Shown: in pieces, positions 5,459 through 61,318 of the stretch
How the letters are laid out: the number at the start of each line of letters is the position of its first letter
How positions within the stretch are numbered: position 1 is the first letter of the stretch
From: Synechococcus sp.
GTDB lineage: Bacteria > Cyanobacteriota > Cyanobacteriia > Thermostichales > PCC-7336
Assembly: GCA_051439605.1 (NCBI GenBank)
Contig: JBFRWN010000070.1
Coordinates: forward strand, 1-64,000
DNA length: 64,000 bases
Direction: 5' to 3'
The notes under the pieces: generated by a model
Databases searched by the model: none
What the model saw: the letters and a program-made list of their open reading frames with translations, nothing else
Told to the model about the DNA's origin: nothing
Made by a program: the position numbers and the translations under genes

Positions 5459-5489
5459 ATAGATTCCTTAGCCAGGGGTCATTAGATTC

Positions 5490-5819
5490 CTAATTACAGT
5501 TTGCAGTATCCCGATTTGCATGAGGATATTTGCCCGTCATGAACATGGCACGAAATGGACTACACAAGGGATAGTAGGAAACTGCATTTGGAAGAACCAA
5601 GCTTTCCTTTGCAAAACGGTCTAGATGTGGCGTGACGACGGGATCCTCGTTCAGAAAACCAAGTGCCTGCCCTCTCATCTGATCGGGAAACACAATGACC
5701 AGGTTGGGACGTTCTCGGCTTGTGTCTCCTCTTTTTGATGTTGAACAAGATCCAGCTATGGCCGCCGCGACAGATATGGTAGCTGTCTGTTTCAAAAAGT
5801 CTCGCCTGGATAGTTTCAC
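5490..5819 (-). pseudogene. Truncated Tat-exported sulfatase (N-terminal ~110 aa only)
   Basis: Tat motif SRRDFLK, RPNLVIVFPDQMR, TPHLDRFA and the active-site motif CSPFRAMFMTGKY are present. It stops at 109 aa (sulfatases are ~450-550 aa) and there is no room for the rest before the tRNA. Confidence 0.85.
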
Positions 5820-5983: not shown

Positions 5984-6874
5984 TTATATTATTTTGCTGT
6001 CATTCTCTGGCTCCATATGATTTCTCAATTCTTCCTTGATTCGCTGATATTGCATCGTCGTATATTTATTCTGGTGACCCAACAAGGATTGTAGTTTTGC
6101 TATAGCTAACGTTCCAGCTCGCTCCATTGCAAAAGTATGTCTCAAATCCTGAATGTGAACTCCCTGCAAGGCTGGGCAGTCTTCTGTGATGGTGCGCCAC
6201 TGTTGATGAACTCTGCGATAACTGAGTCGGGTGACGGTACCGGTGATGGGGTGTTGGGATGTGAATAAAGCTTGGTGTTTCCGATGGCGGTAATACTGCA
6301 GGTATTTTTTCAACAGCTGCGTTAGGTCTTCGCTGTAGTAGCACCAACGAGACTGCTTTCCTTTCCCTATTACGGGGAATCGATGTTGCTGCAAATCCAG
6401 TTCTTCCACATCGACTGCCAGTAGCTCCGATAGTTTGACTCCAGTGTTGTAAAGCAGTCTGAGCAAGGTATGCATGCGACTGTCTTTGCTCGTGACTCGG
6501 AACAGCGTCTGCAACTGCTCTGGGCTGAGTTGGCGGATTGGTCGATTGCCTAAGCCCGATCGATGTCCAGCAGGAGAATATCGCTTGCCACGACGCTGGA
6601 CTTCAAGAGGGTTGGTTTGAATATAGTCGCGATCGACAGCGAAGTTGAGCAGGGCTAGAAGAATGGCACGATGTCGTTTCAGCGTCGTTTTAGAGAGTTC
6701 GCCCCGGCTAGACAAGTACTGTTCGATCACTACCCGATCTAGCTTTTCAATGCTGTGTCGTCCATATTCTTCTAATAGGGGTAATAACGCTACTTCGTAT
6801 GAATCAACCGTGCTTTTAGCTAGATTGGGTCGATCTAAAAACTCTGTAGCAACAGTGGCTAGTGGGATAGACAC
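5984..6874 (-). CDS. Tyrosine recombinase/integrase family protein with substituted catalytic residues
   Basis: N-terminal SAM-like domain, LLYNTGVKLSELL, VIGKGKQSR, IQDLRHTFA and LLGHQNKYTTMQY. Likely start is GTG 6874 (ORF track gives 6931). Confidence 0.88.
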   Translation of the reverse strand: MSIPLATVATEFLDRPNLAKSTVDSYEVALLPLLEEYGRHSIEKLDRVVIEQYLSSRGELSKTTLKRHRAILLALLNFAVDRDYIQTNPLEVQRRGKRYSPAGHRSGLGNRPIRQLSPEQLQTLFRVTSKDSRMHTLLRLLYNTGVKLSELLAVDVEELDLQQHRFPVIGKGKQSRWCYYSEDLTQLLKKYLQYYRHRKHQALFTSQHPITGTVTRLSYRRVHQQWRTITEDCPALQGVHIQDLRHTFAMERAGTLAIAKLQSLLGHQNKYTTMQYQRIKEELRNHMEPENDSKII

Positions 6875-6954
6875 ATTTATATTTAGATAAGTTGTCTGGA
6901 CATATTCTGTACTATAACTATACTTCCTCAATAGAAGCGATCGAGTAGCCTTTC

Positions 6955-19147: not shown

Positions 19148-22100
19148 ATGCGGAACACATCCCCATTTAAATCCTGGGCTCATCAATACCAAAAGTGGTT
19201 CAACTCGTTAATTGGCGATCGCCTAGCTCTAGACCAGTTACGTTGGTTGCCCTTTGCGATCGGTGGCGGAGTGGCTGTGACGGGTATAACGGTAGCCCTA
19301 CAGCTGAGACAGCTGGAACAAGAGCGTCTCCACAGCACAATACAAATCCAAGTCGAGCAGTTTGCCGATAAACTAACCAATCTTTGGCAAAATCGCCTTC
19401 TCACTGTTCAACATATAGGGAGTATGTCTGCCCGCCAGCATAACGCTCTATCGGAAGCACAATATCACCATGATTCCGAGATCCTATTTGGACCTTTTCC
19501 AGACACAATCGCGTTGGCAAAGCTCGATCGAGAAGGTAACTTGCAACATGTCATTGCCCATTCTGAGGGAGATCGAGACTCTGTTGAGTCTACGATTCAA
19601 TCTCCCGATATCGCCAAGCTGGTGCGCGATCGAGAACCTCAAGACGCCATCCTTACACGCCACGAAGAGTGGATGTTGGCTTATAGTCCTATTGTGAGGG
19701 AGGGAACCTACTCTGGTGCATTAATAGCAGTATTTGACTACCGCAGCCTACTTGAAAAGACGTTCTCCCTTACTTCGCTAGAGTCTCTTGCAGTTGTCAC
19801 CATCACCTGCAATGGCAAACCCTTTTGGAGTAACGGACAAACTACGACTACAGACGAACTTCCCATTGAAGAAAAGTTCGGTTATGCCAAACACACCTTT
19901 GGGATAACAGCACTTCCGCAGCAAAGTACCTTACTAAGTTGGCACTATGGCTCCTTCATTGTGGGAGGAGGCAGTCTAGCATTTGGTGCAATACTTGCTG
20001 GCATGCTGGCTCTGTGGCAAACCTCTTACCGTCGATACCGTAGAGCTACAGACATTAACCAGCAGCTCGATATCGAGATAGAGGCTCACAAACAAGCCAG
20101 AGTTGAGCTGACCAAAAGAAAGAAACAACTTCGAATGGTGCTGGACAATTCCCTGGCATCCATCTTTCAAAAAGATAGCGATCTCAGGTACGTATTGGTT
20201 AACCGGCAGTTTGCCAACCTTTGCGGTCTTGAAATCCATCAGCTACTGGGGAAGCGCGATACCGATCTATTCCCTGCAGAAATCGCCGAGCCTTTAGAAA
20301 ACAACGATCGTCAAGTATTGAACTCGAAACAAGCCCACTGTTTTGAAGAAGAATTGATGTTCGCAGGAAATCAGCGGACTCACTTGACTTCCATCAGTCC
20401 GTTAACGGGAGAAACAGGAGAGGTATACGGCATTTGTGGAGTATCGATCGATGTTAGCGAACGCAAGCTGGTGGAGAATCGGCTGCAGGCTGCGTACAAA
20501 CAATTAGATTTACAGTTCGATTGCGCCCCAATTGCCATCATTGAATGGGATGCTCAGTGCCGAATCACGCGATGGTCCCGCCAGGCAGAACATCTCTTTG
20601 GATGGACCTCCGAAGAACAAATGGGAAGACACTGGGGCGATAGCCACCTGCATCTTTCGGAGGAGGCGGTGCAGGTTAACAGAATATTGCAACGCCTCCT
20701 GTCTGGAGCAGAGGACACTGTTGTTAAAACACAATCCAACATCACAAAATCGGGGACAGTATTGCTGTGTGAATGGCATCACTCTGTGCTGCGGGATGAT
20801 AGCGGTCAAGTGGTTTCTCTGCTGTCTATGGGACTTGATATTACCGCCCGTCACCAAGCCACTCTAGCTTTGCAAGCCAGTGAAAAGGGATTGCGGCAGC
20901 TTACCGAGAACATTCACGAGGTGTTCTGGATTTCGGATCCGCAATCTCACAAAACGTTGTACGTCAGCCCCGCCTACGAGGAAATCTGGGGACGGCAGAG
21001 GGAGGAACTTCTTAACAATCCTGACATCTTGATTCAGTCCATTCATCCTGACGATCGCCAAGCCATTCTAGACAGTTATTTTTTGCAAAAACAGGCGGGC
21101 CAGGAAACAGAGGCTGAATACCGCATTGTGAAACCCAATGGCAAGATACGCTGGATTCGCGATCGCGCTTTTCCAGTGTATGGAGGTAGTGGAAAATTAC
21201 TGCGCGTTGTGGGCTTGGCAGAAGATGTCACCGAAACTAAACAGGCCAAGATTGCATTGCAGCGCAAAAAACGACAACAGAAACTTATTGCCATTATTGG
21301 TCAGCACATTCGTCGCTCCCTGGATGTGAACACAATACTTCAATCTACGGTGGAGGAAGTTAGGCACATTCTAAAGTGCGATCGGGCCATCATTTATGAA
21401 TTTGACTCCGATTGGAACGGCACGATCGCGATGGAGTCGGTCGATGTCGGCGTTACATCTCTGCTTGGGAAGACCTTTGAGGATACCTGTCTAGCGCAAA
21501 CCTCTTGTCTCTATGCCTATGCCAATGGGCAACGCATCCAAGCGATCGCAGATATCTTCGAAGCGGGTCTAGACGACTGTTATCTAAAGCTCTTGGCCAG
21601 TTGCGAAGTCAGAGCAAACCTCGTGGTACCCATCGTTTTTGAACGAGAACTCTGGGGACTTTTGATTGCCCAACATTGTCGCGCTCCTAGACATTGGGAA
21701 GACTCCGAGGTGGATCTACTGAAGCAAATTGCCAACCAAGCGGGAATTGCCATCCAACACAGCCAGTTGCTGACCCAAGCTCAACAGCAAGCCCAACAGC
21801 AACTGTTGCTCAATCAATTGATTCGCAACATTCGTGACAGTCTCGATCGATCGACCGTTCTACAACAGGCTGCGGATTCTCTGCGCATTGCACTCAACGC
21901 TAGTCGGTGCTGCATTAGTTTATGCAACCCTGAAGATGACTTTTTCACAGTTGAATATTCTTCCAACGCTTTAGGAATACTCGATATTCGAGGTCGGTCC
22001 GTCCCCATAGCTGGCAATCCTCACACCCAGAAAGTAATTAACAGCGATGCTGTCGTAGCTGTTGATGATGTGAACCAAAGTGACCTGATGCAGGGAAAAG

Positions 22101-23626
22101 GCAGAGAAGCCGCACATCAGCTTGAAATCGGGGCAATTATCGCTACTGCAGTCCGTACAGAGCAACAGTTCATTGGGGTAATCTCGGTACACCGCACCAA
22201 TCCCCATCGCTGGGCCGATCGCGAGCTTTCGCTCCTGAAGCAAGTTGCCGATCAACTAGCCGTAGCTATCAATCAGGCAACCCTATACGATCGCGTTCAA
22301 ACCTTGAACGAACAGCTGGAACAGAAGGTCGAACAAAGAACGGCTCAGGTGAGTCAAGCGCTGAAGTACGAAGCAACACTCAATCGGATTACCGATAAGG
22401 TGCGAGAGAGTCTGGATGAAGAACAGATCTTGCAAGTCGCTCTGCAGGAACTGACGTCTGTTTTAGACTTGCTTTATTGCAATACTGCTGCTTACGATAA
22501 CGAGGCAAAAGTCGCACAGTTAAACCACGAATATTCCTCCCTCGATGCCTCCTTTTCCCAGGCAGTTGGACAAACTGTTTTGATGGAGGATTTTCCAGAT
22601 CGGTTTAAACAGATTTATAACCGCGAGCCCTTTCAATTTTGCGAACTAAAGCCATCTTTCAATCGTCCACATGCGAGCATACTATGCCTCCCGATCGCCG
22701 ACAATCAAGAGGTTTTGGGAGATATTTGGGCGTTCCGTACATCAGATAGATCGTTTACCGACCAGGAAGTTCGCATCGCCCAACAGGTGGCAAATCAATG
22801 CGCGATCGCTATTCGCCAAGCTCGACTCTATAAAGCTGCCCAGGCCAGGGTGGAAGAACTCGATCGCCTACATCTGATGAAAGATGATTTCCTCAGCACG
22901 GTCTCTCATGAACTGCGCTCTCCTGTGGCAAACATCAAGCTTTCCCTCGACATTCTTCAGGTCGCGCTAGATAAGATGAAGCAGGCCAGTGACGCAAAAG
23001 AGCACGATCGAATGGAGAAAAAAGTTCAGAAATATCTTGAAGTGTTGAATATTGAATGCGATCGCGAAATTTCTTTGATTAAAGACTTATTGGATCTGCA
23101 AAGGCTAGAAGCAGGAACAGAGACGCTTGAGTGGGAATTCGTTAATCTCAAGAGTTGGTTACCTCATATTATTTTGCCATTTGTTGAACGAGCAAAACAG
23201 AACAATCAAACCTTAGCCTACGATTTTCCCTCAAATATGGATGGATTAGTCACCGATATGCCAAGCCTTCAGAGGATTCTGACGGAGCTGCTGACCAATG
23301 CTTGTAAGTACACACCTCCCAAAGAATCTATTATTGTGAAGGCATATAGTCACGACGAGCGGTTTACGTTTCAAATCACCAACACTGGGGTGGAAATTCC
23401 AGAGCGTGAACTTCCCTTAGTCTTTGACAAGTTTTATCGCATTGTTGAAGTCGATCGCTGGAAACAGGGGGGAACAGGGCTAGGACTCGCCTTAATTAAG
23501 CGGCTGACCGAAGAAATTGGTGGAGCAATTAGAGCGTGTAGTAGTGACAACCAGACTACCTTCATAATTGAACTACCAAATCGCATAGATATGTTGGTAT
23601 CTCAGCCAGCTGTCTTAGCAGGTTAA
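19148..23626 (+). CDS. Membrane-bound multi-sensor histidine kinase: 2TM-3xPAS-GAF(cyanobacteriochrome)-GAF-GAF-HisKA-HATPase
   Basis: Three PAS/PAC repeats; first GAF with EDTCL, DDCYLKLL and LWGLLIAQHC; FLSTVSHELRSP H-box, ELLTNACKY N-box and GGTGLGL G2. Confidence 0.93.
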   Translation: MRNTSPFKSWAHQYQKWFNSLIGDRLALDQLRWLPFAIGGGVAVTGITVALQLRQLEQERLHSTIQIQVEQFADKLTNLWQNRLLTVQHIGSMSARQHNALSEAQYHHDSEILFGPFPDTIALAKLDREGNLQHVIAHSEGDRDSVESTIQSPDIAKLVRDREPQDAILTRHEEWMLAYSPIVREGTYSGALIAVFDYRSLLEKTFSLTSLESLAVVTITCNGKPFWSNGQTTTTDELPIEEKFGYAKHTFGITALPQQSTLLSWHYGSFIVGGGSLAFGAILAGMLALWQTSYRRYRRATDINQQLDIEIEAHKQARVELTKRKKQLRMVLDNSLASIFQKDSDLRYVLVNRQFANLCGLEIHQLLGKRDTDLFPAEIAEPLENNDRQVLNSKQAHCFEEELMFAGNQRTHLTSISPLTGETGEVYGICGVSIDVSERKLVENRLQAAYKQLDLQFDCAPIAIIEWDAQCRITRWSRQAEHLFGWTSEEQMGRHWGDSHLHLSEEAVQVNRILQRLLSGAEDTVVKTQSNITKSGTVLLCEWHHSVLRDDSGQVVSLLSMGLDITARHQATLALQASEKGLRQLTENIHEVFWISDPQSHKTLYVSPAYEEIWGRQREELLNNPDILIQSIHPDDRQAILDSYFLQKQAGQETEAEYRIVKPNGKIRWIRDRAFPVYGGSGKLLRVVGLAEDVTETKQAKIALQRKKRQQKLIAIIGQHIRRSLDVNTILQSTVEEVRHILKCDRAIIYEFDSDWNGTIAMESVDVGVTSLLGKTFEDTCLAQTSCLYAYANGQRIQAIADIFEAGLDDCYLKLLASCEVRANLVVPIVFERELWGLLIAQHCRAPRHWEDSEVDLLKQIANQAGIAIQHSQLLTQAQQQAQQQLLLNQLIRNIRDSLDRSTVLQQAADSLRIALNASRCCISLCNPEDDFFTVEYSSNALGILDIRGRSVPIAGNPHTQKVINSDAVVAVDDVNQSDLMQGKGREAAHQLEIGAIIATAVRTEQQFIGVISVHRTNPHRWADRELSLLKQVADQLAVAINQATLYDRVQTLNEQLEQKVEQRTAQVSQALKYEATLNRITDKVRESLDEEQILQVALQELTSVLDLLYCNTAAYDNEAKVAQLNHEYSSLDASFSQAVGQTVLMEDFPDRFKQIYNREPFQFCELKPSFNRPHASILCLPIADNQEVLGDIWAFRTSDRSFTDQEVRIAQQVANQCAIAIRQARLYKAAQARVEELDRLHLMKDDFLSTVSHELRSPVANIKLSLDILQVALDKMKQASDAKEHDRMEKKVQKYLEVLNIECDREISLIKDLLDLQRLEAGTETLEWEFVNLKSWLPHIILPFVERAKQNNQTLAYDFPSNMDGLVTDMPSLQRILTELLTNACKYTPPKESIIVKAYSHDERFTFQITNTGVEIPERELPLVFDKFYRIVEVDRWKQGGTGLGLALIKRLTEEIGGAIRACSSDNQTTFIIELPNRIDMLVSQPAVLAG

Positions 23627-23720
23627 TCCAGAGAAGCCAGCATGATTGAGAACTAGTCTGAATCCATCAATATCCACTTGAATATCCCTATAGTCCAGAT
23701 AATTATTCGAGTAGAAGAGA

Positions 23721-24455
23721 ATGACTACCTCCAGATTAGGACTTGATGGATGTCGTGCGGGGTGGATTGCTTTTTCTGTTTCGCCACACCAACTGCACCA
23801 TCATTTACTGGAAACGCGACAGCAGCTCTTAGCTCTGTTGAACGATGCCTCGTTAACCTTCATCGATATGCCGATTGGGCTTTCGGATAGTGAAGCAAGC
23901 CGCAGGTGCGATCGACTGTTACGTCAGGCTCTTGGGCCCAACTTTCGGTCCAGCGTTTTCAATCCGCCGGTCAGAGCAGCTGTATATTCCGATAGTTATT
24001 TCGAAGCCTGCGATCGCAACGCAGCAGTCACGGGCAAAAAAATCTCTAAACAGTCTTGGAACATTACTGCAAAGATCCGTCTGCTGGATGGACTTCTGCA
24101 GCAGCATCCTCCACTAAGGGAGACGGTACTCGAAAGCCACCCAGAGTTCCTGTTCTTCCAGCTCAATGGTGGCAGGTCTTTATTGAACAAGAAGAAGACA
24201 CCGGCAGGCAAGGAGGAAAGGCTCGCGATACTTGAAAGATGCTGGCCAGGGGTGTCATCTGCCTTTGGACTAGCGCGATCGCAGCATCTCAAAAAGCAGG
24301 TGGCCGATGACGACATTGTGGATGCATTGGGACTAGCCATTGGTGCACATCTGGCCCATCAGGGGGGAGTGCTCAGCCTACCCTCACCCATTGATGTAGA
24401 TTCTGCAGGTATTCCGATGGGGATTCATTACTGTAACCGAGTGACGGCCCAATAG
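23721..24455 (+). CDS. DUF429 domain protein (predicted RNase H-like nuclease fold)
   Basis: LGLDGCRAGW, FIDMPIGL, RRCDRLLR, SSVFNPP, ESHPE and DDIVDA. Confidence 0.88.
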   Translation: MTTSRLGLDGCRAGWIAFSVSPHQLHHHLLETRQQLLALLNDASLTFIDMPIGLSDSEASRRCDRLLRQALGPNFRSSVFNPPVRAAVYSDSYFEACDRNAAVTGKKISKQSWNITAKIRLLDGLLQQHPPLRETVLESHPEFLFFQLNGGRSLLNKKKTPAGKEERLAILERCWPGVSSAFGLARSQHLKKQVADDDIVDALGLAIGAHLAHQGGVLSLPSPIDVDSAGIPMGIHYCNRVTAQ

Positions 24456-25388
24456 ATGGGGATAGCCGAACTTGAAACTCGTATAGTCCAGATAATTATT
24501 TGAGATAACTCCCTACTTTCTTGCCATCCACTAGTGAATGCGCCTAGGCGAATGTATAACTCAGTGTTTTTTAGTTTCGACCCCCGATGCATGACTGTAT
24601 TGCTTCCTCGGGCATCGCTTTACGTCGCATCACACTCTACTCACTCCATATGTACTGCCTACCCTTGGATATGTTCCGACCTCGGACTCTACCCAAATAG
24701 TCCAGATAAGTGAGAGTTATCTGGACTATCAATATGGCCGCAGGCTGAAATGCTTGCTGTATATGGCTTTTTAGGAAACTCTTTCCGCTAAAAAATGACC
24801 GGATTGAGGTGCAAGCAGAGGCGATCGCTCCCATAGGGCTTTCTCTTGCACAAAGCTCAAGTCACTTGATGGTTCGCCTTTATACGTTTATCGTCAGTCC
24901 AACGACCTTGGGCGAGCTATTGCTTTCATCATCTTGTCCAGATCCTTTCGTTCAGTCTTCTCCCTAGTTGCTCGTACCCAGCAGTGGACTTAGGAAAACC
25001 GAATAATTATCTGGACTATCGGTAGCCACATCGTAAGAAATCTAAGTCCGCCGTCCCCCACGATTTTTTTCCTCAGTTGTATGGAAAGGCTTCGTTGAGC
25101 TAAATATCAGCCGATTAAATAGCCAAGCAACTGCTTGCCCCTTAAGCTCTTATGAAACAGCTTCGATCCTCTGCATTGGCCGGAAAAATTATCTGGACTA
25201 TCTATGTTAAATTGCACAGCTAGTACCAGCGGGAGCATTTGAGTTGAACTATGGGCCTCTCTAGCAATTGACAAGCGCGATGGGTACTCAGCCCCTCCCC
25301 TTATTAGGAATAGAGCTTGTAGCCCTGACTGAGATGCAACAAGTATCAGTAGAAATTTGATGTTCGGACTGGAATTCAAATGCAAATC

Positions 25389-25910
25389 TTAGACGGTTGC
25401 CGCTGTTTCTTCTGTGGTTAACTCCTGAGTGGAACTTGCACTGTTCTGAATAACCAACACCGAGCAAGAGGCATGATGGAGCACGTAATTACTGACGCTG
25501 CCCATCAACAATTCACCGATCGCCCCCAATCCTCGGCGTCCTATCACGATCGTGTCGGCCCCCCACTCTTCAGCAATTTCGCAAATGGTTTTCCCCGGCT
25601 CTCCAAACCGGTGACTGTACTCCACATCCACTTGGGCATCCGGAGCGCGTTCTGCATATTCCTGTACGGCCTTAGATGTCCGATCCGCAAATGATTTCAG
25701 TAATTCCAATCCCAACCGATGCATTTCTGCAGTTTCCCGTAAAAATAGCGAGAGATCTTGCATATCTGTCCCCAACGCCATTCCTTCAAACAAAGACGTG
25801 ACGTTCAATAGCAGCGTTTGTGCCCCCATTGCCTCTGCGAGCGCCACCCCCTGTTCAAATACCACTTCGCTGAATTCGGACTTATCTAGAGCTATCAAAA
25901 TTCGTTTCAT
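25389..25910 (-). CDS. Universal stress protein (UspA family)
   Basis: MKRILIALDKSEFS..GEPGKTICEIAEEWGADTIVIGRRGLG..LMGSVSNYVLHHASCSVLVI. Likely start is ATG 25910. Confidence 0.93.
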   Translation of the reverse strand: MKRILIALDKSEFSEVVFEQGVALAEAMGAQTLLLNVTSLFEGMALGTDMQDLSLFLRETAEMHRLGLELLKSFADRTSKAVQEYAERAPDAQVDVEYSHRFGEPGKTICEIAEEWGADTIVIGRRGLGAIGELLMGSVSNYVLHHASCSVLVIQNSASSTQELTTEETAATV

Positions 25911-26208
25911 CTCCGCGCCCTCAGAATTCCACTGGCGTCCCCTAGTTTTAAGTCTAGAGATAGATTGTGGGGAAAGCGTGAGTCTGACAAGCCAGGGATG
26001 TCTTCGATTCCGGAAAACGAAAGAATCGTCGTCACAATAATTATCTGGACTATGGACTCCAGCAACTGCAAGAGCCCTCACTCCCTAAGGTTCTGCTAAA
26101 CCGCAGGAAAGCTACAATCGCGGGCCCCTTTCCAGCGTGGCATTTCCCAACATTGAGGTATCGGTTGTTAAGCTGTTCGGGCAATTGAAAAGCTGCTCTA
26201 AGTGGATG

Positions 26209-29031
26209 TTAAGCCGGCGTCTTCCGATTGTTGCGCCAACGCCTCCACCCCAGCAAAGCCATCCCCATTACCACTAATCCCAAAAGCATCCATTCTTCAG
26301 GCTCTGGCACCCCAGAAACCGTCAGCGGGTCAAATGGTTCTCCTAACTCCTCAATCCCCGATTCCACCTCGCGGTCAAATCGATCCTCGGCATTCTCTGC
26401 CTCGTCCAAATCCTCTAGCTGCCGCTCGTTCACCAACACAATCATGGAGGAATAAGGGCTGACCACCTTGTAACTTGTGGCGATCGCGTGTAGCCGATCC
26501 AGCTGCTCTAATTCACTGCTGCCCCCTCGACTCAAGTCAGCAATCAGCTGACGAGCGGCGATCGCTGCAAAGCCGCTGCCTCCATCCGATACCTCATCCG
26601 ACAGTGCCAAATCGCTGCCCACATCTGTACCGGCTCTCTCCCACAAATATCCATCTATCACGCCGATTGCCGTAGGTTGCTGCGAGCGTACTGTCAAGGT
26701 GTCTATGATTTGCGCCATATCGGTAGACACCCCACCGTGGCTTTGCTGAATAGCATCGAGCATAACGTCATCGTAAGAAGCCGGTAGCTGCCCCCCCACG
26801 TGCATTAGCCAAAGGGGAACCGAAACCTCGCTATCTAGGGAGAGATCGGTGGCCAGTTCGTAACTGCCTGCATCGGTGACCAGCACGACAGCGTCGTAGG
26901 TTCTCCCCTCCTGCTGCTGAAGAAAAGCGTTCAGCATTTCTTGGGGCTGAATTGAGCCGTAGTTAACGATCGATGCAGCATCAAATTGCTGTAAGTCATC
27001 AATTCTTTTCGCTTCAAATCCTTGTCTGCTGAGATAGAGATCGGCGTCATTCTTGCTTAGTTCGCGATCGCTAAATCCGCGCTCTTTCAGCCAATTAAAC
27101 AGCTCGATAACTTCAGCTTTATTGGCTTCCATACTGAACGAGCGATCGAGCAGGATTGCTAGATGCAACTTTGGTTCGATTGCTTCATCCGGTTGCAGAT
27201 CGCCCTGGAAGGGAGTAGCTTGCAGCTCGTAATCATCTAGCAACTTGACTCTGTGCTCTTTCGGCTGATAATCCGCTGTGGCAGGTAATATCTGCTCCAA
27301 CCAGCTGTCTTGGGAGGGGATTTTCTCACCATTGCGCAATCGTTCTGTTTTGCCGTTCCAATAGACATTGCGATACTCGATTGCCTGCGGTAGCGGCCAT
27401 CCCTGGGGCTGTTGTAGCACGCTATAGGCCATCCACAAATGCAGCTCTGACTGGCGATCGTCATTCAATTGCTTGGAGGGAATGGGGAAGGCTCGCAGTC
27501 GGTATTGTCTTGGCCCCACCTGTTCTAACAGGGCAGGGTCAACCTGCCGCCTCACCTCGTTGTTATACACCTGTTGAGCAGCCCCTCTCGGAGACACCCG
27601 GAACTGATAGCGATCTGCCCTCGAAGGACTATTTCCCAGCCACAATCCAGTCAGGGTGGCACTTTCTAGCAATGAAAACGTATAGAAAATTTCTTGGTCT
27701 TGAAAGGTTTGATTTTGGTAGGTTTCGTGAATCTCTATGTCTGCCCAATCCTGATGTTCGTTGATAGAGATTTCCTGTTGTTTGAGCCAAACTAATGTTT
27801 GGTCGATATTAATCAACCCTGCTTGGGCTTCTTGGCGATTAAAAGTAGAGTCCAAAGCAAATTGGATTGCTCCCCGCTCCCCCTTTTGAATGGAGGTATC
27901 GAAAAACTCTGAATAGAGGGATTCTGCTTTGCGGACGTCGCTGCGGGAGCCATCGTACAAGAAAGGGGCCATCAATTGGTTGTAGAACCGCTGTAGCCCT
28001 AAACAGACCCCGTCAGGCAGTCGGAAGACCTGGCGGTACATGGCATAGATGTGGTTGTTATCTTCCCGGCTGCTGAGATAGCGATAGGGAGAAAGATAGG
28101 CATTGCGCAGTCCAACCTGAATGGTATCCGCTTCGGCCAAGAGCTCCTGTCTAGCTTGGTTGGTTTGTGGGGACGTGGCTAGTAGTTCAAAGGCTTTTGC
28201 GGAGGGCTGTTGCTGCAAGAGTAGGCAAGCGAGCGCTCCTATAGCGGTTGTGGCTGTCACTGCGGCGATCGCAATTCCCTGTCCGTATTGCTTGGAAAAC
28301 CATTGCAGCGATCGACGTCCATCCCGCACGTACAGCCAGCAAAGTGCCAGGGGCATGCCAAAGAACAAGGTTGCCGACATGCCAAACAGGATTAACGACA
28401 GAAGTATCCAGATGCCACTGCTCAGTAAATAGGTAAACCCCTCCGAGACCAGCTCTAGCAGGGGTTCGAACCAGCCAAACGAGAAAAATCCGATCGCCGT
28501 CACCCATACAGCGGGCAGTACATAAAAGGCAAGCACAACGGTTCCGTAGATCCCCACCCAGAACACCGCTGTCTGACCGCTTAAGTTCAACCAATCCTTT
28601 AGAGGAGAGTCTAAATGGATCTTTTTTTCACCCTTTTGAGACACCTTCCCCTGAATCAGATTAAGGAGATACACCACGATCGCCACCACAATCGTGCCAA
28701 GGGCAAAAGCAGCCCCTGCAGGAAGTTCGCGCACAAGGAACAGACGCAGAAGACACAGCAAAAAGAACGGAGCTTCCACACCGTAGAACAAGCGTCCTAA
28801 CCGATCGGGTTGGGTTCTGAATTTCGCAAACCCAATCCCCGTGCAGATCAAAGGGACAGCAACGATCCCTAAAAAGGACAGCAATAGGCTGTAGGGGATA
28901 GCTCCTGCGGCGATCACACGGGGAATAACGGCCCCTCCCGCTGGCAAAATGCCCGCCAAGACGATGAGGAGGAAAATACCGTTCCAACCCCAGAAAATGC
29001 AGTGGATTGCGATCGCTCTCAGTCTTTTCAT
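26209..29031 (-). CDS. TIGR02921-type integral membrane PEP-CTERM protein (VIT- and vWA-like domains)
   Basis: N-terminal TM bundle, VIT-like DPALLEQVGPRQYRLRAFP, LDRSFSM, and a C-terminal VPEPEEW + TM + basic tail (WRRWRNNRK). Confidence 0.88.
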   Translation of the reverse strand: MKRLRAIAIHCIFWGWNGIFLLIVLAGILPAGGAVIPRVIAAGAIPYSLLLSFLGIVAVPLICTGIGFAKFRTQPDRLGRLFYGVEAPFFLLCLLRLFLVRELPAGAAFALGTIVVAIVVYLLNLIQGKVSQKGEKKIHLDSPLKDWLNLSGQTAVFWVGIYGTVVLAFYVLPAVWVTAIGFFSFGWFEPLLELVSEGFTYLLSSGIWILLSLILFGMSATLFFGMPLALCWLYVRDGRRSLQWFSKQYGQGIAIAAVTATTAIGALACLLLQQQPSAKAFELLATSPQTNQARQELLAEADTIQVGLRNAYLSPYRYLSSREDNNHIYAMYRQVFRLPDGVCLGLQRFYNQLMAPFLYDGSRSDVRKAESLYSEFFDTSIQKGERGAIQFALDSTFNRQEAQAGLINIDQTLVWLKQQEISINEHQDWADIEIHETYQNQTFQDQEIFYTFSLLESATLTGLWLGNSPSRADRYQFRVSPRGAAQQVYNNEVRRQVDPALLEQVGPRQYRLRAFPIPSKQLNDDRQSELHLWMAYSVLQQPQGWPLPQAIEYRNVYWNGKTERLRNGEKIPSQDSWLEQILPATADYQPKEHRVKLLDDYELQATPFQGDLQPDEAIEPKLHLAILLDRSFSMEANKAEVIELFNWLKERGFSDRELSKNDADLYLSRQGFEAKRIDDLQQFDAASIVNYGSIQPQEMLNAFLQQQEGRTYDAVVLVTDAGSYELATDLSLDSEVSVPLWLMHVGGQLPASYDDVMLDAIQQSHGGVSTDMAQIIDTLTVRSQQPTAIGVIDGYLWERAGTDVGSDLALSDEVSDGGSGFAAIAARQLIADLSRGGSSELEQLDRLHAIATSYKVVSPYSSMIVLVNERQLEDLDEAENAEDRFDREVESGIEELGEPFDPLTVSGVPEPEEWMLLGLVVMGMALLGWRRWRNNRKTPA

Positions 29032-29067
29032 CAGTCCCTTTCCCAGAAATTTTTGACTGTTGGCTAA

Positions 29068-30660
29068 TTAGATAAGCGAAGAGTTCGTATTGGCACTCGA
29101 GACCGCAAAGCTATGGGAAATTGCGTCCTGTAACGCAGTTGCCATTGACTCGATCTGTTCGTTACCAGGCAGCAATGGGCGATCGAACAAAATCGACACC
29201 ATCACCCAGGGCGTATCGGGATGGGTGATGGACTGCCAAAACCGGGCTATATATTCATCAGTTGTCCCCTGTGGGGATTGAAACCAGTAGGTGGCGGACA
29301 GCTTACCGTGTTCCAGCGATAGCCACCTAGCATCCAGCCCTTTTGCCAGCTGTGTTTCCTGCATAGCATCCACTTGAAAGCCGTTGCCCGCAAAGCACAA
29401 TTCTGGAGGATGGTGAGACTTCCAATCTTGGGCCACAACCACCAGCATCGACCCGCTGACCCCGTCCCAATCAAACTGCCATTTTTCAGCAATGGGAATG
29501 GTGGGTTGGTTGAAAAAATGGGCTTCAACCTGACTTAACGGCAGCGGAGTTGCATTGAATTGCTGTGGCAGCTGTATCGCTGAGATCGCCCCTTGAGAGA
29601 CGAGTGGAGCAATTCCATTGCTGGCGATCGCAAAAGCCGCCAGAATAGTTACGAGACCCACTTGCCAGCGTCGATTCAGTCTATCGATGTCTTTTGTGAC
29701 ATAGGCTGTCAGTTGCTCTGGGTTACCGCATGCTGGACGATCGCGGGCAGCAGTGTCAGCCTTTGGCACCCACTGCAGTAACAGCCATCCCACCCCGCAA
29801 GAAAGACAAAAGCCAATTAACCCCAGCGGTAGGTGCAGCACCTCGGCAAAGGAACGAGCACCCAGTCCGTAGGCGATCGCCACTAAGAGAAACACCCGGA
29901 CAGCATTGGCCCAGAACAGACAAAATAGGGTTCCACAGGCAGCTAACAACCAGCGCAGTCCCAATTGTCGTTGTTCTAGCAAGGTAACTAGCAAAACAAA
30001 CACACCGCCCGTCCACAGGCTTTTGAGGCCGCTGCAGGGCAAATCTACATGGGCAATTCCGTTCTCCAACAGAATGATGTCGTTGGCTGAAATCGCTGCT
30101 ACATGCCACAGGTGCATGGCCCGCTCGACCAAATGGGCCGTCATCACTCTGGCAGGGACCCCTAATCCCGTTTGGAACTGCGTACTGAAGGGCAGAATGC
30201 AGGTAACTAGGGCTGTCACGGGCCATCCCTGCTTCCAGGCTCTGGGGGTTAAGTGCAGCCCCAGTAAACCGTAAGTACCGAGGGACAGCAGCATTACGTT
30301 CAGCTGGGGAATATCTACAAGAGGTTTGAGCAGCAGAGAACCGAACCCTCCCCCCACCGCCACCGCTAACGGCCACCAATGGCCATAGCACCTCATCCGA
30401 AAACTCCACGCAGAGGAAGAGCCCTTTGCCTTTGTTATCCTGCCTAGCAGCTTCCAAGCCACAATTGCGCCTACCCCCAAAGCAAGCCCTAGGTTTGTGT
30501 TGGAGGCTGCATCCAATGTAGAGAACAACCACCGTAAGGATCCCCAATGGGTGTATCCCCATAGCCCCCAGACGCATGCCGTCATGGCCACGGACAATAT
30601 TGCCGGTGGCATTGGGCGATCGCCCAAAACTATAGTTGGGCCGGTGCTTGACTCCTGCAT
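29068..30660 (-). CDS. xrtO: Exosortase O
   Basis: Multi-TM protein with HVDLPCSGLKS (catalytic Cys), ANAVR and LHLPLG, and an EpsI-like C-domain HHPPELCFAGNG. It lies directly upstream of its PEP-CTERM substrate. Confidence 0.85.
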   Translation of the reverse strand: MQESSTGPTIVLGDRPMPPAILSVAMTACVWGLWGYTHWGSLRWLFSTLDAASNTNLGLALGVGAIVAWKLLGRITKAKGSSSAWSFRMRCYGHWWPLAVAVGGGFGSLLLKPLVDIPQLNVMLLSLGTYGLLGLHLTPRAWKQGWPVTALVTCILPFSTQFQTGLGVPARVMTAHLVERAMHLWHVAAISANDIILLENGIAHVDLPCSGLKSLWTGGVFVLLVTLLEQRQLGLRWLLAACGTLFCLFWANAVRVFLLVAIAYGLGARSFAEVLHLPLGLIGFCLSCGVGWLLLQWVPKADTAARDRPACGNPEQLTAYVTKDIDRLNRRWQVGLVTILAAFAIASNGIAPLVSQGAISAIQLPQQFNATPLPLSQVEAHFFNQPTIPIAEKWQFDWDGVSGSMLVVVAQDWKSHHPPELCFAGNGFQVDAMQETQLAKGLDARWLSLEHGKLSATYWFQSPQGTTDEYIARFWQSITHPDTPWVMVSILFDRPLLPGNEQIESMATALQDAISHSFAVSSANTNSSLI

Positions 30661-61288: not shown

Positions 61289-61318
61289 AGCTCCACCAAT
61301 TTTGGTGGGGCTTTATTT
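61289..61318 (+). terminator. Intrinsic terminator after heme oxygenase
   Basis: AGCTCCACC..GGTGGGGCT stem followed by TTATTT. Confidence 0.7.

Follow-up and report, generated by a model that had tools for sequence, protein, structure and literature searches.

The 64,000-nucleotide stretch of Synechococcus sp. analysed here (the window; contig JBFRWN010000070.1 of assembly GCA_051439605.1, positions 1 to 64,000) carries a palindrome in which a 7-bp spacer separates two inverted 13-bp arms; further copies of the arm lie to either side, with genes between some of them. We find that this core palindrome has the anatomy of a tyrosine-recombinase site, that it is conserved across the order (Thermostichales) at a single copy per genome, and that it is distributed, and has been lost, together with an Xer-like tyrosine recombinase encoded on another contig. 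The outer arms follow an orientation rule, pointing at the core, and the cargo between them varies from genome to genome. The overall reading that we favour, with a probability of about 0.5, is that the core is a dif-type target of the host's Xer-like enzyme and that the outer copies are one-armed insertion scars. Taken separately, its parts differ in strength. From sequence comparison, the core is very likely to be the target of the conserved enzyme, and it is probably a dif-type site; insertion is the best-supported origin of the outer copies, at slightly short of even odds, the main rival being that they are accessory binding sites.

An array of identical arms around a palindromic core

A re-scan of the window located the 13-mer ATAGTCCAGATAA at 23690 (+), 24483 (+), 24697 (+), 24717 (-), 25007 (-), 25189 (-) and 26041 (-), the seven exact copies listed in a first-pass annotation that had been made from the sequence alone. 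There is no further exact copy in the window, and the sole other match at up to two mismatches, at 61313 (-), has two. These eight matches compare with a mean of 1.19, and none of 100 dinucleotide-preserving shuffles reached eight. The plus and minus copies converge on a central palindrome, ATAGTCCAGATAA-GTGAGAG-TTATCTGGACTAT, whose 13-7-13 layout has the tyrosine-recombinase-site anatomy that had been proposed for it and which, as a single strand, forms a hairpin with a 13-bp stem (z = -3.97). The arm-to-arm spacings of 793, 214, 290, 182 and 852 bp are borne out by the arm coordinates, and all five 7-mers downstream of the outer arms (TTATTCG, TTATTTG, TTATTCG, TTTTTCC and TTATTGT) were found as described. 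The copies at 23690 and 25007 share an identical 20 nt.

The assembly from which the window was taken (G000; 4.9 Mb in 143 contigs) contains eight exact copies of the 13-mer, namely the seven within 2.4 kb and one on contig C58 (C58:5470). The 13-mer was also considered as the terminal inverted repeat of an insertion sequence (IS) or a miniature inverted-repeat transposable element (MITE). This candidate was rejected, because only the copy on C58 is added when the search is extended from the array to the whole assembly.

Distribution of the core palindrome

The exact arm is present in 25 of 61 sampled relatives and is concentrated in the order of the window, with 4 of 6 genomes in one of the two families and 15 of 23 in the other; the reversed arm, used as a control over the same 61 relatives, gave six matches in total. 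When the palindrome was searched as CCRGATAA-N6-8-TTATCYGG, exactly one match per genome was obtained in 22 of the 30 genomes of the order, and none with the reversed pattern. One genome missed by the pattern has a variant core (G021). Apart from the cases of co-loss described below, the remaining misses come from genome incompleteness or contig ends; G005 and G019 have arms at contig ends, and G003 and G004 have only doubtful candidates. Among 371 genomes searched outside the order, the pattern was found in six; five of these matches represent a related site with different outer arms, four of the five with a 6-nt spacer.

The core spacer is 7 bp long in 20 of the 22 listed sites and 8 bp long in the remaining two. 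It is semi-conserved within the order (GTRNNAA in one reading direction), with the window and G001 deviating. Metagenome contig L205, from a strain 97.6% identical to the window and with the same left array, has a core at 1333-1365 with the spacer GTAAGAG versus GTGAGAG in the window, and since the two cores differ by this one base the spacer drifts within the species. The genus g4 (12 genomes of 2.2-3.7 Mb) has a site with the arms ATACTCCAGATAA. In the nine g4 genomes that have the site the core stands alone, with no other arm within ~8 kb. A search of Rfam with the conserved g4 flank returned no family, and the core has no fixed gene partner across genomes.

Wider scans added little. The 16-base pattern gave at least 120 matches in genome contigs, which were swamped by chance and had no taxonomic value; the full 26-base palindrome matched only two short contigs among metagenome contigs; and a search of viral contigs for an arm with a partial second arm gave one match, in a coding region of an AT-rich phage, which was judged to be chance. 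Assemblies often break within ~150 nt of an arm or core (G001:C114, G009:C64, G019:C37, G019:C89, G005:C130, L205 and L206), which hints at strain heterogeneity of the locus in the sampled populations.

A conserved Xer-like recombinase

There are eight tyrosine-recombinase matches in G000. An Xer-like protein of 312 aa is encoded in 28 of the 30 genomes of the order, at 73-91% identity and in single copy save for weak paralogue matches in two genomes. Its best model scores are 121 bits with XerC, 118 with XerA and 112 with XerD, though it falls far below the cut-offs of these models and of XerS. In an alignment with the solved structures of XerA and XerD, the catalytic motifs (Arg, Lys, His-x-x-Arg, His and Tyr) are matched. 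A search of a large protein collection at E <= 1e-30 returned 31 clusters, all at least 69% identical to the recombinase. Their sources are Synechococcus sp. PCC 7336, hot-spring Synechococcus strains and Thermostichus metagenome-assembled genomes, and from these names we take the order to be an early-branching cyanobacterial lineage.

Site and enzyme have been lost together. Two genomes that are both 99% complete (G010 and G022) have neither the recombinase nor the palindrome, and in a third (G013) the recombinase gene contains an internal TAG and the palindrome is missing. Both flanks of the locus in G022 are syntenic with G016, the palindrome having been removed almost precisely; in G013 a single arm is left directly after the conserved flank, and in G010 the conserved flank is not followed by a site.

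Two other recombinases were rejected as the acting enzyme on the basis of their distribution. The window's own recombinase gene (5984-6931) is found in 3 of 30 genomes and the C13-type integrase, patchy and multi-copy, in 11 of 30; neither occurs in g4. Recombinases on contigs C34 and C65 were left out of this comparison. The gene at 5984-6931, on the minus strand 17 kb from the array, encodes a second Xer/XerA-like tyrosine recombinase of 315 aa. Its relatives in the order are confined to G001 (44% identity, on the same contig as the G001 array and ~2 kb from the first arm) and G005, and it is probably the integrase of a mobile element. G000 also contains three near-identical integron-integrase-like genes (C7:64-777, C88:4407-5285 and C61:32926-33168), one of them cut by a contig end and one with an internal TAA.

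Outer half-sites and their cargo

We collected 74 distinct exact arms, of which 49 are neither core arms nor one of two special cases. Beyond these 49 arms, 2-6 of 13 positions agree with the second arm, a level that random positions also reach, and the outer copies are therefore true half-sites. In a logo of 42 outer sites from 12 loci, collected with at most one mismatch, the arm is invariant; the bases after it are T (39 of 42), T (34) or G (8), A (21), T (29) and T (22), and no sequence is conserved upstream of the arm. The description of the outer copies in the window as one-armed and followed by a short conserved stretch thus applies to the other loci as well.

By hand count, 39 of the 42 half-sites point to their own core, that is, they are direct repeats of the near core arm, and the mirror layout seen in the window recurs in other genomes. 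The exceptions are L039:5562, L041:6676 and L044:4694; the last, 4.5 kb off and inside a long open reading frame (ORF), may be a chance match. Of six genomes with a one-sided array, five have it on the side on which the core spacer begins with TT (hand count, not significant). A locus has up to nine half-sites, spaced from 14 nt to 4 kb apart, and their number and position differ in every genome.

The cargo of the units differs among genomes as well and includes genes for DUF429, a universal stress protein (USP), a pentapeptide protein, a methyltransferase, hydrolases, a RES-Xre pair, GNAT and SUKH. When 35 units were compared by all-versus-all BLAST, only three pairs proved to be related: the USP units of G000 and G002, the DUF429 units of G000 and G001, and a pair from G009 and G029 with a 106-nt stretch in common. 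Cassette content does vary, related genomes having unrelated cargo in their units, and relatives are not collinear at this locus. The USP homologue in G002 is bounded by arms and keeps its orientation to its own arm, and it lies on the other side of the core than in G000; inversion between a left and a right arm would give this arrangement. The arm that carries the mismatch in G001 and G002 is the one farthest from the core, a point that we counted in favour of insertion.

Two comparisons place junctions at arms. Metagenome contig L206 and G001 have in common the flank and an arm-DUF429-arm unit; their homology is lost 4 nt past the arm and picks up again precisely at the core, with unrelated inner units (139 + 440 nt versus 131 + 173 nt). 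A contig from sequencing run X3 matches the window only over 25001-25020, and of its two 30-nt flanks, one is identical to the sequence upstream of arm 4964 in G001 and the other to that downstream of arm 5562. Since these flanks fuse two G001 arms, the contig represents a G001-like variant that lacks the 598 bp between two direct 19-nt repeats. In a run resembling the source of the window, one contig spans 20636-26172 in the window's arrangement.

Four sites combine a perfect arm with a second arm matching at 9-10 of 13 positions (G000:C58, G006:C583, G021:C115 and G002:1342590), the first three being on small contigs. The first of them lies on a plasmid-like contig (L193) of 12.1 kb with 45% GC, compared with 51% for the genome, that has ParA, PIN toxin and UPF0236 genes. 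The site itself (5470-5502, minus strand; second arm 9 of 13) is within a 1.3-kb non-coding stretch upstream of parA. Sites of this type resemble plasmid resolution sites or attP sites, which we counted in favour of insertion, and the one on C58 is a candidate for such a site that would use the host enzyme.

Related site-gene modules in distant cyanobacteria

In other families there are related palindromes of the form ATATTCCRGATAA-N6-TTATCYGGAATAT. The best homologue of the recombinase (31-35% identity) is on the same contig as the related palindrome in three of five genomes examined; in G170 and G354 the palindrome precedes the recombinase gene by 110-190 nt, and in G284 the two are 8 kb apart. 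A gene next to its site is the classical layout of single-recombinase Xer modules, and we took these modules as independent support for the pairing of site and enzyme. These distant homologues have the recombinase fused to a PRiA4_ORF3 domain, and the G170 gene adjoins a ParB-HTH gene in a plasmid-like setting. Uma2 (PF05685) genes adjoin recombinase-type sites at four loci in four genomes: L219 2724-2745 (G170), L220 ~2646-2667 (G354), L194 8591-8625 (G002) and L197 at 358 and 1338 (G021). Uma2 genes are numerous in cyanobacteria, and this proximity may be due to chance.

Proposed mechanism and points against it

From the anatomy and distribution of the sites we infer binding and catalysis by the 312-aa enzyme, resolution of chromosome dimers and an insertion origin of the half-sites, as follows. 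One recombinase monomer would bind each 13-bp arm of the core, and strands would be exchanged across the 7-bp spacer; through this reaction the core would resolve joined chromosome copies by means of one chromosomal, vertically inherited Xer-like recombinase. The outer copies would be half-sites for the same enzyme, each an arm with the first bases of a spacer (T, T/G, A, T, T). The host enzyme may have integrated at the core small circles that lacked an integrase and carried one good arm each, giving hybrid sites. Each insertion would remake an intact core and shift older insertions outward, and occasional recombination between arms would later remove units or turn them over to the opposite side of the core. 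A bolder version, which we regard as doubtful, is that the dif-type site doubles as a two-sided gene-capture platform, a 'dif-integron' of the order's larger genomes, in which one-armed circles are integrated on either side, shuffled, inverted and excised, with GATAAT serving as a -10 box for transcription toward the core.

The assignment of the core as a probable dif-type site is based on the combination of one palindrome per chromosome with a conserved, unlinked housekeeping recombinase, which points to multimer resolution and is hard to explain otherwise. Several observations weigh against this assignment, and others against the insertion origin of the half-sites. The position of the site gives no clear indication of a terminus: its distance in the complete genomes G016, G007 and G002, respectively, is 15%, 25% and 34% of the genome to dnaA and 41%, 29% and 34% to dnaN. 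The orientations of the rRNA operons give no coherent origin-terminus picture, and no switch in GC skew or gene strand was seen on the window contig. GC skew is very weak in this lineage, with a GC skew index (GCSI) of 0.0125 for a hot-spring Synechococcus in a supplementary entry of PMC3025954. A canonical FtsK motor domain was not found, the best match reaching 26.8 bits over 36 of 221 positions. The joint loss of site and enzyme is correlative and comes from three genomes; two of the three are the smallest of their genus, and many of their genes may have been lost.

Concerning the half-sites, tandem arms occur 14, 17 and 19 nt apart, which insertion of circles cannot make. A 28-nt tandem (an arm followed by T and a second arm starting with TTAG) is present at L043 5667-5694, L046 5121-5148 and L042 7306-7332; it is common to G009, G029 and G024, which belong to two genera, and its flanks are unrelated. 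Nearly all outer arms are perfect, though scars need not be, and the spacers of the outer sites are unlike the core spacer of this genome. Breakpoints had been predicted to map to the arms. The junction of the X3 variant does lie inside an arm, but the homology between G018 and G025 breaks ~60 nt from an arm and the strain of run X4 diverges from the window at 25304, 103 nt from the nearest one. The g4 genomes have 0.4-3.4 kb of extra DNA between the conserved flank and the core without an arm at the far junction. Finally, neither circles nor joints were seen in the metagenome contigs of four sequencing runs.

Alternative explanations

Some of these observations would be better explained if the core were the crossover site and the half-sites were functional accessory sites at which extra recombinase monomers aid or control synapsis, with the genes between them turning over by ordinary processes. 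The arms are exact or one base off in all 42 sites and their flanks are unconserved; arms stand in tandem 14-19 nt apart, with the 28-nt tandem kept in three genomes (G009, G029, G024); all true half-sites lie within ~4.5 kb of the core; and some homology breakpoints between relatives miss the arms. However, g4 genomes with both core and enzyme have no half-site within ~8 kb, so that half-sites are dispensable. In addition, whole genes lie between half-sites, no two genomes agree in the number, spacing (14 nt to 4 kb) or position of these sites, and the breakpoints in the L206-G001 comparison and in the X3 variant fall at arms. We consider accessory sites a serious rival, though a less likely one than insertion.

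A role of the 13-mer in transcription, as the operator or promoter element of a transcription factor or of the recombinase acting as repressor, with a small stress regulon (USP, DUF429 and others) and the palindrome as the strongest site, appears improbable. Arms are found 13-290 nt ahead of genes, with arm and gene in the same orientation in ten units versus three (hand count); the arm ends in GATAAT, which resembles a -10 box, and TTGAAT and TTGAAA occur 5-6 nt upstream of the first two window arms. Nevertheless, the sequence upstream of the arm is unconserved in 42 sites, and a sigma-70-like promoter can be fitted to just one of the five outer arms of the window, a lower number than shuffled sequences gave (mean 3.8). 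Different genomes have unrelated genes downstream of the arms, the reading direction is opposite to the arm in three units, the sites are confined to the neighbourhood of the core rather than spread over a regulon, the core is tied to no single gene, and an operator would not typically be identical at 13 of 13 positions in two families. Still less probable is the proposal of the first-pass annotation, a dedicated integron- or shufflon-type cassette platform, here taken to have its own integrase and to be separate from chromosome maintenance. It accounts for single-gene units bounded by one-armed sites and could draw on the integron-integrase-like genes on other G000 contigs or on the second tyrosine recombinase, 17 kb off in the window and ~2 kb from the array in G001. 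Yet no integrase is adjacent, and the nearby recombinase is present in 3 of 30 genomes and scores 41.6 bits against an integron-integrase cut-off of 265 bits. There are no attC-like paired sites, the half-sites having no partner arm, and the plus arms all lie left and the minus arms right of the core, where a shufflon would intersperse them. Moreover, the core is an order-wide, single-copy site that tracks an Xer-like enzyme encoded elsewhere, and in g4 core and enzyme persist without cassettes.

Genes in and around the array

The features of the array are collected in Table 1. The ATG of the DUF429 gene lies 18 nt past the first arm, and Pfam matches and coordinates agree with the earlier description of the DUF429 and USP genes as both reading to the centre. 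The arm-DUF429-arm unit recurs in G001 and in metagenome contigs L205 and L206. DUF429 was considered as a functional partner of the site and dropped, as it is arm-linked in genus g1 only and the DUF429 copy of G002 has no arm. A search of PDB sequences with the DUF429 protein gave no match. The neighbours of the array are those named before, a sensor-kinase-like ORF on the left and a gene for a protein with a PEP-CTERM-like tail on the right. Directly right of the array, 26209-30660 (minus strand) encodes a 940-aa VIT-domain protein followed by a 530-aa exosortase (EpsH), a sorting pair; the C-terminal tail of the VIT-domain protein resembles PEP-CTERM, the motif being judged by eye.

Table 1. 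Position of the sites, units and genes of the array, and of the conserved recombinase gene.
Feature	Position	Strand	Evidence
Core site, candidate dif-type crossover: two inverted 13-bp arms, 7-bp spacer GTGAGAG	24697..24729	.	One per genome in 22 of 30 genomes; co-loss with recombinase
Outer half-site 1: arm + TTATTCG, left edge of array, without second arm	23690..23709	+	Arm scan, second-arm comparison, logo
DUF429 cargo gene, reads toward core	23721-24455	+	PF04250, E 2.4e-51
Outer half-site 2: arm + TTATTTG	24483..24502	+	Arm scan, logo
Non-coding inner unit, within 214-bp unit	24503..24696	+	No homologue in G001, G002, L206
Non-coding inner unit, within 290-bp unit	24730..25006	-	Unrelated to units of other genomes
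Outer half-site 3: arm + TTATTCG	25000..25019	-	Logo; run X3 contig matches only 25001-25020
Non-coding unit, within 182-bp unit	25020..25188	-	ORF list, unit BLAST
Outer half-site 4: arm + TTTTTCC	25182..25201	-	Arm scan, logo
USP cargo gene, reads toward core	25389-25910	-	PF00582, E 6.6e-32
Outer half-site 5: arm + TTATTGT, right edge of array	26034..26053	-	Arm scan, logo
Sensor-kinase-like long ORF (candidate label), left of array	19148-23626		ORF list
Xer-like tyrosine recombinase, 312 aa, outside the window on another contig	G000:C28:14492-15430		Present in 28 of 30 genomes

Comparison with known systems

Single-recombinase Xer/dif systems include XerS/difSL, XerH/difH and archaeal XerA. 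Integrative mobile elements exploiting Xer (IMEX) insert at dif in such a way that the core is regenerated and successive insertions stack. Legionella XerL is described as a further single-recombinase Xer system in a section of PMC9765430. The present system resembles these in having one Xer-family enzyme and one lineage-conserved palindrome per chromosome, with putatively mobile DNA beside the site, and the inner arm ends, ATAA...TTAT, are those of E. coli, B. subtilis and Frankia dif as given in an excerpt of PMC3025954. It differs in its 13-bp arms and 7-bp spacer (8 bp in two genomes), as opposed to 11-6-11, in the distance between recombinase gene and site in this order, in the lack of a detected FtsK motor domain, and in a protein that falls below the model cut-offs. 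IMEX arrays at dif, such as TLC/CTX of Vibrio cholerae and LME-1 of Legionella (the latter from the same section of PMC9765430), likewise consist of integrase-less DNA beside a core, bounded by a hybrid site of which one arm is good; for IMEX sites, a passage of PMC3025954 mentions degenerate XerD arms as well as central regions of greater length. In contrast to IMEX phages, the units here are single genes or non-coding stretches of 60-1300 bp, and they form mirror arrays on both sides of the core with up to nine half-sites per locus. We regard dif with IMEX-type insertions as the closest known analogue, because the core is an order-wide single site that tracks a housekeeping recombinase and occurs also without an array.

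Integron arrays and the R64 shufflon consist of short units between recombination sites, and sfx sites keep one arm and the start of the spacer. The array shares with them the run of short single-gene units and, with sfx, the conservation of one arm plus the spacer start. Unlike them, it has no adjacent IntI or Rci, no attC-type folded sites and no inverting C-terminal gene segments, and its core occurs also without an array. Accessory single-arm sites near a crossover site are known from the TnpI repeats in the Tn4430 resolution site, and work by Karaboja in 2021 is said to describe XerD-only sites near the B. subtilis terminus. Both are like the half-sites in being extra single-arm sites near a crossover that are not themselves crossover sites; the half-sites differ in that their number and spacing vary per genome, genes lie between them and they are absent from a whole genus. 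Acinetobacter pdif modules, as outlined in a part of PMC6449649, are also small accessory-gene modules bounded by Xer-type sites, but pdif sites are full XerC/XerD plasmid sites in alternating orientation, whereas those described here are one-armed, chromosomal and converge on a single core.

Implications

The 2011 dif prediction failed in all five cyanobacterial genomes tried, one of them a hot-spring Synechococcus apparently of this lineage, according to a table excerpt of PMC3025954, and a passage of a 2019 genome paper (PMC6416890) still had no cyanobacterial dif predicted. A prediction after 2019 was not found in the literature searched. The portion of 10.1101/542381 on recombinase subgroups names a cyanobacterial subgroup 'Cyan' as a possible Xer substitute and gives no site there. 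The core and the 312-aa recombinase would be a concrete site-enzyme pair for an early-branching cyanobacterial order, with a related site-gene module in other families, and they make the question of how chromosome multimers are resolved in polyploid, FtsK-less cyanobacteria directly testable. If the arrays were made by insertion, the mirrored half-sites around single genes would preserve, in compact natural form, a history of gene capture by Xer on either side of the core, a two-sided layout around a palindromic core that is undescribed for IMEX elements.

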